Positions 6,001-9,000 of a stretch of DNA of 64,000 nucleotides are shown here, piece after piece. The stretch lies in NCBI RefSeq assembly GCF_056712565.1, contig NZ_CM160072.1; one strand, written 5' to 3'. Positions within the stretch are counted from its first letter, which is position 1. Each line of letters starts with the position of its first letter. A program made the position numbers.

Positions 6001-9000
6001 TTCAGCAGAACGAATGACGCAGCGCATTTGGTATATTGTCAGGGCGCGTTTGATGAGCAAGCATGGTTGCTCATTGCCATTCTGAAACCTGAACCTCATA
6101 AACTGGCTCGAGATAACAACCAAATGCATAAAATTGGGAAAATGGCAGAAGCGTTTCGCATGCGTTTTTGAATTTATATTATGAATAACATACAAATAAG
6201 AAACTATCAGCCTGGTGATTTTCAGCAACTATGCGCTATTTTCCTTCGAGCTGTTACGATGACGGCGAGTCAGCACTATTCTCCACAGCAAATTGCCGCC
6301 TGGGCGCAGATTGACGAATCTCGCTGGAAGGAGAAACTCGCGAAATCACAAGTGCGGGTTGCAGTTATTAATGCACAACCGGTTGGTTTTATTACCTGCA
6401 TTGGACATTATATCGATATGTTATTTGTTGAACCGGAATACACCCGACGCGGGGTTGCCAGCGCTTTGTTAAAACCATTGATTAAGTCTGAATCCGAACT
6501 TACGGTGGACGCCAGCATAACCGCAAAACCCTTTTTTGAACGTTATGGTTTTCAGACAGTTAAGCAGCAGCGCGTTGAATGCCGGGGAACGTGGTTTACT
6601 AATTTTTATATGCGATATAAACCGCAACATTAAATCCAGCTTGCAATGAAAATAACGCCCGTCTAGTATGTGCGCGTTTTCTTATTCCACAAACTGCAAG
6701 GAGGTAAATCATGACAAATCCTTTATCAATGACTCTTTGCAGACCTTTCCAGGATTAATTCTTTTTTCTTGCCCTGGATTCGTCTGCCATTTCCTGATTT
6801 TTATTCATAAATGGAATGGTACATGGGCAAATATATTCGTCCCTTATCCGATGCGGTATTTACCATCGCATCTGATGACCTGTGGATCGAAAGTTCAGCG
6901 ATCCAACAATTACACACCACGGCAAATTTACCCAACATGCAGCGCGTTGTGGGGATGCCAGATTTACATCCCGGACGCGGCTACCCGATTGGCGCAGCGT
7001 TCTTCTCTGTTGGTCGTTTTTACCCGGCACTGGTCGGCAATGATATCGGCTGCGGCATGGCGCTATGGCAAACAGATATTCTCGCTCGCAAATACAACGC
7101 CGATAAGTTTGAAAAGCGATTATCAGATCTGGATGACGTTGCTGAAGAAAGCTGGCTGGAGGAAAACCTGCCGTCAGCATTTGCACAGCATCCGTGGCGC
7201 AACTCGCTTGGCTCCATCGGTGGCGGTAACCACTTCGCAGAACTGCAACAGATTGATCAAATTATCGACGCGGAACTGTTTGCACTGGCTGGTCTGGATG
7301 CGCAGCATCTGCAACTGCTGGTTCATAGCGGCTCGAGGGGATTGGGGCAGTCTATTTTACAGCGGCATATTGCCTCGTTTTCGCATCATGGTTTGCCTGA
7401 AGGCAGTGACGACGCGCTACGGTATATTGCGGAACATGACGATGCGCTGGCGTTTGCGCGTATTAATCGCCAGCTGATCGCTTTGCGCATAATGCAACAA
7501 GTTAAGGCCACCGGAAGTCCGGTTCTGGATGTGGCGCATAACTTTGTTAGCGCGTGCCAAATCGGCGATCAACAGGGCTGGTTGCATCGTAAAGGCGCCA
7601 CGCCGGATGACAACGGTCTGGTGATTATTCCCGGTTCACGCGGCGATTACTCCTGGCTGGTTAAACCTGTTGCGAACGAAAAAACGCTCCACTCGCTGGC
7701 GCATGGGGCGGGGCGTAAATGGGGGCGCACCGAGTGTAAAGGGCGTCTGGCAGCGAAATACACGGCGACGCAACTCTCGCGGACTGAACTTGGCAGTCGG
7801 GTAATTTGTCGCGATAAACAACTCATCTTTGAAGAAGCGCCACAAGCCTATAAATCGGCTGAAAGCGTGGTGCAATGTCTGGTGCTGGCTGGGTTAATTA
7901 TTCCTGTCGCGCGACTGCGCCCGGTGCTGACGCTCAAAAACAGTGGAGGGAAAAAAGGATGATCTTGCTACAACTCTCCTCTGCTCAGGGGCCGGAAGAA
8001 TGTTGTCTCGCAGTGAAAAAAGCACTGGACAGGCTGATTAAAGAAGCTACCCGACAGGACGTCGCGGTAACGGTGCTGGAAACAGAAACGGGTCGCTACT
8101 CTGACACACTGCGTTCGGCGCTGATTTCTCTGGATGGCGATAACGCATGGGCTCTAAGCGAAAGCTGGTGCGGCACTATCCAGTGGATTTGTCCGAGTCC
8201 GTATCGGCCTCATCATGGGCGCAAAAACTGGTTTCTGGGCATTGGGCGTTTTACCGCTGATGAGCAGGAACAATCGGATGCAATCCGTTATGAGACGCTG
8301 CGTTCGTCGGGGCCGGGCGGTCAACATGTCAATAAAACCGACTCGGCGGTACGCGCCACGCATCTGGCATCCGGTATTAGCGTGAAGGTTCAGTCAGAGC
8401 GCAGTCAGCATGCTAACAAACGGCTGGCGCGATTACTGATTGCCTGGAAGCTGGAACAACAGCAACAGGAAAATAGCGCGGCGCTGAAATCGCAGCGGCG
8501 AATGTTCCATCACCAGATTGAACGTGGCAACCCGCGACGAACGTTTACAGGGATGGCTTTTATCGAAGGGTAATGAAGGATGATACTGCCGGAAGGCGAT
8601 TAAACGCCATCCGGCAGCAAATCAAATAATTACTTCGCCGGAATTTCTTTCAGCAGTTCAGTCAGCAGTGTCCAGTAATGGCCAACGCTTTCGATATGAA
8701 CTTGCTCATCCGGGGAGTGTGGACCGGTGATGGTTGGCCCGATAGACACCATGTCCATTTCCGGATACGGTTTTTTGAACAGGCCACATTCGAGGCCCGC
8801 GTGGATAATCTGGATGTTCGGCGTTTTGTTGAACAGACGCTGATAGGTTTCACGTACCAGATGCATTACCGGAGAGTTAGCGTCCGGCTGCCAGCCAGGA
8901 TATGCGCCTTTTGCTTCGGTTTTCGCACCTGCCAGTTTACCCAGCGAATCCAGCATGCTCACTACGTAGTCTTTACCGCTGTCGATCAGAGAACGGATCA

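Follow-up and report, generated by a model that had tools for sequence, protein, structure and literature searches.

How does Escherichia coli control the rtcB2-prfH operon, a ribosome-repair pair that encodes an RNA ligase re-sealing cleaved 16S rRNA and a release-factor homologue? We asked this question of a 64,000-nucleotide (nt) stretch of E. coli DNA (RefSeq assembly GCF_056712565.1, contig NZ_CM160072.1; the whole stretch is henceforth referred to as the window), in which a short open reading frame (mini-ORF) lies upstream of rtcB2. The original prediction for this locus had suggested that the mini-ORF encodes a leader peptide which couples expression of rtcB2-prfH to translation status. 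This suggestion gained support from three sides, namely the conservation of the ORF, the presence of alternative RNA helices and homology to PA5471.1, the leader of the armZ gene in Pseudomonas aeruginosa. We consider it fairly likely that the mini-ORF is a translated leader peptide within an attenuator-type 5' leader of the rtcB2-prfH mRNA, and the counterpart of PA5471.1.

The mini-ORF occupies positions 6711-6758 on the + strand and, as originally described, comprises 15 codons followed by TAA, encoding MTNPLSMTLCRPFQD. It is preceded on the same strand by the consensus Shine-Dalgarno sequence AAGGAGG (6698-6704, read directly in the sequence); this motif had been correctly recognised, while the spacer to the leader ATG (TAAATC) turned out to be 6 nt long rather than 7. 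The distance from the leader stop codon to rtcB2 is 64 nt. Taken alone, the combination of Shine-Dalgarno sequence and start codon is not significant, since the pattern AAGGAGG-N5-8-ATG occurs once in the 64-kilobase (kb) window where 0.45 matches would be expected, and at least one match was also present in 38 of 100 shuffled sequences. The significance of the mini-ORF thus derives from its conservation across genera.

To describe this conservation, we compared 20 loci from about 17 genera or lineages, after removal of two Escherichia loci that were near-duplicates, one Klebsiella locus out of three and a single metagenome contig. Besides E. coli, the named loci came from Citrobacter, Klebsiella (three species), an Enterobacteriaceae metagenome-assembled genome, Salmonella, Kosakonia, Cronobacter, Intestinirhabdus, Limnobaculum, Pragia, Leminorella, Proteus, Providencia, Pseudomonas sp. 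YH-1, P. aeruginosa and five metagenome contigs. The matches listed in a metagenome pattern scan were mostly due to chance (e.g., L123, L098 and L089, which were rejected), and at least five loci had rtcB downstream. All 20 gammaproteobacterial rtcB2 loci have an open leader frame (the +1 frame is closed in 18 of them) as well as a GCAA(A)GGRG block followed 6 nt later by ATG (8 nt in P. aeruginosa). The leader is 15 codons long in 13 loci, 14 codons in one and 13 codons in six; a core of L/I/F-C-R/G is common to every locus, and the stop codon invariably falls exactly 5 codons past the Cys codon, whatever its identity (TAA in 16 loci, TAG in 2 and TGA in 2). Given that codons 2-7 diverge freely between loci and that the differences in length are whole codons, the mini-ORF bears the signature of a translated ORF. 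The original prediction had left its conservation to be checked, and we found the mini-ORF upstream of rtcB2 in all 20 loci, which range from E. coli to Pseudomonas. The same range of organisms shares the motif GGAWTGG-N3-ATGGGC at the rtcB2 start. The leader is nevertheless not universal to rtcB-prfH operons, as it is missing from a Sphingopyxis rtcB locus with 50% identity, and it seems to be restricted to Gammaproteobacteria.

Conservation within E. coli is broader still than that of the operon. Of 5426 complete E. coli genomes, 5387, among them K-12, carry the 125-nt leader (6676-6800) with an identity of at least 95%; full-length rtcB2-prfH is found in only 2674 genomes, the remainder carrying the K-12-type deletion of about 1 kb. 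K-12 itself retains ykfJ' and prfH', in keeping with the earlier statement that its locus consists of fragments. An alignment of four E. coli sequences (the window, K-12 strain PG20180170 and two others) showed no difference within the mini-ORF. None of the 12 records listed has an annotated feature at the leader match, and neither does MG1655. Fifteen leader and rtcB2-prfH matches come from plasmid-typed records, which is unexpected for a chromosomal dinB-pepD locus.

We then considered the RNA structures that the leader could form, all coordinates of which refer to the + strand. A hairpin that we call P0 pairs CTGCAAGGAG (6694-6703), which covers the 5' half of the leader Shine-Dalgarno sequence, with CTCTTTGCAG (6733-6742) within leader codons 8-11. 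It was part of the minimum-free-energy fold in 12 of 12 species tested; in E. coli its energy is -14.7 kcal/mol (z = -3.6), with z ranging from -2 to -4.8 in Enterobacterales and weaker values in the Pseudomonas class. The six core pairs of P0 are 99% paired across the 20 sequences and nearly invariant. A second, long-range helix, P1a, joins GCAGAC (6739-6744; leader codons 10-12) to GTCTGC (6782-6787). Because the 3' arm of P0 and the 5' arm of P1a share GCAG, full P0 and full P1a are mutually exclusive. P1a was recovered by RNAalifold from an unbiased MAFFT alignment of 12 Enterobacterales, with compensatory changes. For the whole set we used an N-padded alignment anchored by hand (A3), since MAFFT misaligned the P1a 3' arm of Proteus, and here two pairs show compensatory changes (AU in 9, GC in 9 and GU in 2 sequences at one; AU in 18 and GC in 2 at the other). 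In 19 of 20 loci there is a single fully complementary downstream 6-mer (L068 has two, 9 nt apart), and the 3' arm is found at the homologous position in every locus, even where about 190 nt are inserted into the loop (Intestinirhabdus, L030, and P. aeruginosa, L154).

Nearer to rtcB2 we found three further helices. The stem noticed in the original prediction, TCCAGG (6748-6753) with CCTGGA (6773-6778), is present and complementary; we refer to it as P1b, and its 3' arm overlaps the 5' arm of P3. The latter, TTGCCC (6769-6774), pairs with GGGCAA (6825-6830), i.e., the last base of the rtcB2 start codon and codons 2-3, when leader codons 8-12 are excluded from the fold. In P2, CCATTTCC (6787-6794), which abuts P1a, pairs with GGAATGG (6813-6819), a presumed weak Shine-Dalgarno sequence for rtcB2 that ends 3 nt before its ATG. 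P2 appears in all minimum-free-energy folds, 93% of its cells are paired and three of its pairs changed on both sides, bearing in mind that the bulge positions were set by hand, which favours pairing. When the 3' domain was folded alone, the rtcB2 Shine-Dalgarno region lay in P2 in 12 of 12 species and the rtcB2 start codon or the bases that follow it lay in P3 in 11 of 12, P2 being enclosed by P3 in most species. Rfam searches returned no + strand match in the leader at E-values up to 10, nor any in the leaders of the Salmonella, Klebsiella, Proteus and Pseudomonas loci; an antisense match to STnc350 (20 bits against a gathering score of 60) was rejected.

The closest described relative of this arrangement is found in P. 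aeruginosa. PA5471 (ArmZ) is an RtcB-family protein (cluster PRK09588) whose gene is co-transcribed with that of a release-factor homologue, PA5470, and the organism senses ribosome disruption via translation of the 13-amino-acid leader PA5471.1, located about 250 base pairs (bp) upstream (PMC3516279). Ribosome stalling on PA5471.1 induces both armZ and the prfH homologue PA5470 (PMC3516279, PMC13041342, PMC12057347), and the ykfJ gene of E. coli K-12 has been reviewed as an ArmZ homologue inducible by the translation inhibitor 4-azaleucine (PMC3516279). In our P. aeruginosa locus (L154), the leader, an RtcB gene and a gene with an RF-1 domain follow one another in this order, and the ORF MIQFSTLCRLRLA at -254 fits the published description of PA5471.1 (13 amino acids, Gln3, Phe4, about 250 bp upstream; PMC3516279, PMC13041342). 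A hidden Markov model (HMM) built from Enterobacterales only gave two collinear hits in this locus, one to PA5471.1 (E = 0.007) and one just upstream of armZ (E = 4e-4), with the caveat that pattern matches were over-represented among the sequences searched, making chance hits to the 5' part more frequent. Intermediate loci of the Pseudomonas class scored 1e-9 to 1e-18 with the same model, thereby linking both classes. Based on the HMM hits at both ends, the shared core and Shine-Dalgarno block and these linking intermediates, we take the E. coli mini-ORF to be the counterpart of PA5471.1.

Side by side, the two leaders agree in many details. Both precede, on the same strand, genes of the RtcB (PRK09588) and PrfH families; both have the same GCAAAGGAGG Shine-Dalgarno block, a T-L-C-R core encoded by CCTTTGCAGG with the stop 5 codons after the Cys codon, a CCTTTGCAGGC core (the GGTCTGC partner of which lies 212 nt downstream in P. 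aeruginosa) and the same P0 and long-range P1a arms; and GGATTGG-N3-ATGGGC precedes armZ. The E. coli ORF differs in having 15 codons instead of 13, the two extra codons being N-terminal, in its Shine-Dalgarno-to-ATG spacer (6 nt vs. 8 nt) and in the distance between the leader stop and the ligase gene (64 nt vs. about 210 nt). P. aeruginosa carries about 190 nt inserted in the P1 loop, with the P2 5' arm displaced, and its P0 is much less stable than that of E. coli (z = -1.2 vs. -3.6). E. coli also lacks the MexZ/MexXY output; the regulated products would comprise the ribosome-repair pair only. Finally, the stalling response has been published for P. aeruginosa, whereas for E. coli we infer from homology that rtcB2-prfH would be switched on by ribosome stalling. 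Given that the Pseudomonas homologue was described in 2009, the leader is not a wholly new kind of element.

How might such a leader work? We infer the role of each helix, and the masking of the rtcB2 start as the output, from a scheme of four regions, where region 1 would be the leader Shine-Dalgarno sequence, region 2 leader codons 8-12, region 3 the segment TTGCCCTGG...GTCTGCCATTTCC, and region 4 the rtcB2 Shine-Dalgarno sequence with the start codon. Pairing of 1:2 corresponds to P0, that of 2:3 to P1 and that of 3:4 to P2 and P3. With healthy ribosomes, the leader would be translated to its stop, region 2 would be covered, 3:4 would pair and mask the rtcB2 start, and the operon would stay low. 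If no ribosome were on the leader, P0 would form and the rtcB2 start would likewise be masked. By contrast, a ribosome held at or near the leader start would occupy region 1 and leave region 2 free, allowing P1 to form, which would withdraw region 3 from region 4 such that rtcB2-prfH is expressed. Ribosomes cleaved by colicin E3, and many antibiotic-inhibited ribosomes, would be those held near the start codon; colicin-E3-cleaved ribosomes have been reported to arrest at the start codon (PMC13166195). In this scheme, the step that is controlled would be the initiation of translation, through masking; Rho-dependent polarity might follow and would explain changes in mRNA, and no intrinsic terminator would be involved.

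Several observations are consistent with this scheme. The first position of region 2 (+22 in E. coli, +17 in the 13-codon class) lies just past the footprint of a ribosome on the start codon, and in constrained folding the rtcB2 start site was most accessible with a ribosome placed on the leader AUG (mean unpaired probability of its Shine-Dalgarno region, 0.26 vs. 0.14). Constitutive armZ expression has been published for three PA5471.1 mutants, namely Q3Am, one lacking nt 1-226 and a clinical one lacking the 7 nt from 16 to 22 (PMC13041342, PMC12057347). All three agree with P1 being the 'on' helix; in the last of them, the P0 3' arm is lost and GCAGGC is retained. Mutations of fmt and folD, both of which affect initiation, induce armZ as well (PMC13041342). 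As a side observation, 18 of the 20 leaders have AGA or AGG as codon 11, Proteus and Providencia having GGA or GGG instead, a choice that is forced by P1a pairing. AGA and AGG are rare Arg codons in E. coli, and a rare codon at this position could also slow the ribosome over region 2. As for the output, a simple scan of the E. coli + strand between 6700 and 6830 detected no G+C-rich hairpin followed by a U-tract, and none was detected in P. aeruginosa or Pseudomonas sp. YH-1 either. With no intrinsic terminator detected, the output step (translational masking or termination) is uncertain; we favour translational masking, both for this reason and because the published attenuation mechanism of the Pseudomonas homologue is, according to a 2025 review, still in need of confirmation (PMC12057347).

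A more specific version of this mechanism can also be formulated, namely that the leader is a sensor specific for initiation-arrested ribosomes, that its output is an unmasked rtcB2 start (opening of P2 and P3) instead of relief from a terminator, and that the ancestral job of the PA5471.1 family was to induce 16S rRNA repair, control of MexXY via ArmZ in Pseudomonas having been added later. Only a ribosome bound at the leader start and unable to decode codon 2 would then keep P0 open and region 2 free at the same time, and a colicin-E3-cleaved ribosome would be such a ribosome. We put this version forward tentatively, as possible yet on the doubtful side.

A number of observations weigh against the translated-attenuator interpretation or parts of it. 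The mini-ORF does not appear in one supplementary file of an E. coli K-12 ribosome-profiling study; the same file also lacks entries for position 253239, yafP and ykfJ, and the growth conditions of K-12 could simply leave the mini-ORF unexpressed, which would explain its absence. The change in accessibility produced by ribosome masks in equilibrium folding is modest and lends weak support. Moreover, the P2 core is clear of P1a, meaning that the opening of P2 is not explained by simple competition. P0 shows no covariation across the 20 sequences, as both of its arms are constrained for other reasons, and the 100% pairing of P1a in alignment A3 is partly circular because the arm was chosen by complementarity. 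Across the family only 62% of P1b cells and 67.5% of P3 cells are paired, P3 being absent in Budviciaceae (Limnobaculum, Pragia and Leminorella). A further point comes from the Pseudomonas system: Morita and colleagues reportedly described in 2009 a start-codon mutant of the leader that was also constitutive. Such a phenotype would agree badly with 'no translation = off', except if the Shine-Dalgarno sequence were still bound by 30S subunits. Lastly, the published model for PA5471.1 is one of transcription attenuation with a 3:4 terminator (PMC13041342).

This last point leads to the possibility that the leader and its sensing are as we propose, with premature transcription termination (intrinsic at 3:4, or Rho-dependent) as the output and start masking not primary. 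Apart from the published model, the rise of armZ mRNA upon stalling (PMC13041342, PMC12057347) speaks for it, and the pyrimidine-rich spacer with conserved T runs after the leader could load Rho or act as a weak U-tract. Those T runs, however, sit in the P2 loop, 8-14 nt after P1a, the scan described above found no hairpin-plus-T-run terminator in any of the three species, and the invariant GGAWTGG-N3-ATG with its partner points to a translation start site; the attenuation mechanism, moreover, is the one that the 2025 review regards as unconfirmed (PMC12057347). We consider termination as the primary output to be unlikely, if well worth keeping in mind.

The remaining explanations dispense with the leader peptide as a sensor. 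One could imagine that the conserved element is a structured RNA that binds a protein or ligand (e.g., in autoregulation by RtcB2 or PrfH), the ORF being incidental to its helices. Since the conserved peptide residues (L-C-R and Q) coincide with the arms of P0, P1a and P1b, they may indeed be a by-product of RNA conservation. Such a structure would leave unexplained why an invariant ATG stands at a fixed distance from a perfect Shine-Dalgarno sequence, why the frame stays open through diverging codons, why length changes are multiples of three and why the stop varies in identity and not in position. Nonsense and missense mutations in PA5471.1 furthermore behave as expected of a translated leader (PMC13041342), and no Rfam family matches, so that we find this explanation improbable. 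We attach a very low probability to a small peptide acting in trans: its strong ribosome-binding site and conserved C-terminal half might suggest one, but residues 2-7 are not conserved, the length varies between 13 and 15 amino acids, the conserved codons are explained by RNA pairing, and leader mutations in P. aeruginosa were shown to act with the leader in cis to armZ (PMC13041342). Equally improbable is a chance ORF next to a chance Shine-Dalgarno match in an intergenic spacer. The single AAGGAGG-N5-8-ATG in 64 kb is, as noted, within expectation, and yet this would have to account for conservation in all gammaproteobacterial loci examined, for a covarying structure and for an experimentally characterised homologue.

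The proposed leader shares features with several well-known classes of regulatory leaders without coinciding with any of them. Like translational attenuators of the ermC/cat type, it has a short leader ORF within a chain of alternative pairings, and an early-stalled ribosome would free a segment that competes with a helix masking the downstream ribosome-binding site. It differs from them in that region 1 is the leader's own Shine-Dalgarno sequence and start rather than internal codons, and in that no drug-specific arrest peptide is evident, the known inducers of the Pseudomonas homologue being chemically diverse. The four-region logic (1:2, 2:3 and 3:4) and the translated leader recall attenuators of the trp type, which differ by their runs of regulatory codons and by a terminator hairpin with a U-tract, neither of which we found here. 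In leaders of the toiL-topAI/tnaC type, which control Rho-dependent termination in E. coli, an ORF placed before a stress operon similarly senses stalling or ribosome-targeting stress; these leaders are unrelated in sequence to the present one.

Upstream of the leader we found promoter-like elements on the + strand. A -35-like hexamer, TTGCAA (6641-6646), follows directly after the yafP stop codon (6631-6633), and a -10-like hexamer, TAGTAT (6664-6669), is conserved in spacing and position across genera: of 19 loci that represent different genera, 16 have TTGCnn-N17(18)-TAnnnT at the corresponding place. The candidate promoter scores under the threshold of our consensus scanner. Between the -10 hexamer and the presumed transcription start lies the G+C-rich stretch GTGCGCG (6670-6676), and in most loci the -10 hexamer is likewise followed by a G+C-rich block of about 7 nt (e.g., ACGCGCA or GCGCGCC) and then by a T-rich tract. 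Blocks of this kind resemble the discriminators of stringently controlled rRNA and ribosomal-protein promoters, which hints that transcription of the leader might respond to guanosine tetraphosphate (ppGpp).

Around the leader, the genes of the window follow the order dinB-yafN-yafO-yafP-rtcB2-prfH, with pepD next on the opposite strand. The original prediction had described rtcB2 and prfH as full length, and in this it was right: RtcB2 has the catalytic His294 and matches NCBIfam PRK09588 (643 bits) and TIGR03073, and PrfH (7959-8573, + strand; 204 amino acids, as stated originally) matches TIGR03072 (329 bits) and carries the GGQ motif at residues 120-122, including Gln122. His294 and Gln122 are the catalytic residues that were mutated in a 2022 PNAS study (PMC9304027). 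The length given for RtcB2, 383 amino acids, has to be revised. It relies on an upstream ATG at 6811 that Citrobacter, Intestinirhabdus and the Pseudomonas-class loci either lack or have in another frame, and the conserved start, ATG 6823, which is also used in the RefSeq annotation of the identical sequence, yields 379 amino acids (6823-7962, + strand). The two genes are translationally coupled through an ATGA overlap at 7959-7962, which we could read in the sequence as described, and both match the corresponding genes of E. coli ATCC 11775 with 100% identity.

Variation around this locus takes several forms. The site between the P2 arms (window 6795-6812) holds an inserted repeat in many E. 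coli including K-12, in Escherichia ruysiae and in some Klebsiella, as seen on comparing L001 (1640-1890), L002, L003, L013 and L014; it is empty in the window, in L009 and L010, in K. oxytoca and in Citrobacter. The repeat has a long form of 128 nt (K-12) and a short form of 56 nt (E. coli). The long form contains AAGTAAGTGACTGGGGTGAACG, which we take to match the ERIC2 primer at 21 of 22 positions, so the repeat is presumably an enterobacterial repetitive intergenic consensus/intergenic repeat unit (ERIC/IRU) element. Given its location within a hairpin loop, P2 may remain intact. A hit of a structural-entropy screen at K-12 253317-253416 (rank 98) proved to be this inserted repeat after the leader and was discarded as uninformative. 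In the Salmonella locus (L023), the minus strand between dinB and the leader promoter (2180-2303) matches the Rfam family Vibrio RNA AS5 below threshold (39.9 bits, E = 1.6e-5, gathering score 96), which is probably a repeat element. The Intestinirhabdus locus (L030), whose insertion of about 190 nt in the P1 loop spans 1268-1460, has the gene after rtcB called as two fragments of 144 and 61 amino acids (2637-3312), with no RF-1 domain on record; its prfH may be decaying while rtcB2 and the leader persist. Further upstream, the yafN-yafO toxin-antitoxin pair (window 5477-6171) lies between dinB and yafP here and in K-12. Strains RM9387 and SK1144 have no yafN-yafO and there dinB overlaps yafP directly; the intergenic region of SK1144 is identical to that of the window.

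Turning to the literature, we found that the published E. coli RtcB2-PrfH work that we examined, in which the genes were expressed from foreign promoters, mentions no leader, upstream ORF or native regulation, and that the words 'leader', 'promoter', 'intergenic' and 'short ORF' are absent from the text of a 2006 comparative paper on the operon. None of the publications listed in a search for these names joins PA5471/ArmZ with RtcB2. In the papers we examined that name prfH together with 'leader peptide', no link between the leader and E. coli was made, although the original Pseudomonas papers of 2006 and 2009 could have noted an enterobacterial homologue. In Pseudomonas research PA5471.1 is treated as a feature of MexXY control, and the 2025 review states that such regulation 'appears to be unique to MexXY' (PMC12057347). 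The E. coli leader therefore appears to be a new and unannotated member of an already known, PA5471.1-like kind, one that is compact and may act at the level of translation.

The work on RtcB2-PrfH and that on PA5471.1 thus appear as two bodies of work that have not been joined. If both leaders belong to one conserved family, then rtcB2-prfH of E. coli should respond to ribosome damage and to ribosome-targeting drugs, and P0, P1a and P2 would offer a phylogenetically supported structure with which to re-examine the unconfirmed attenuation model in Pseudomonas. The primary role of ArmZ would then likely be ribosome repair. If this holds true, the 125-nt leader, which almost all E. coli retain, including those that have lost the operon, would possibly represent a compact natural reporter of ribosome stalling.

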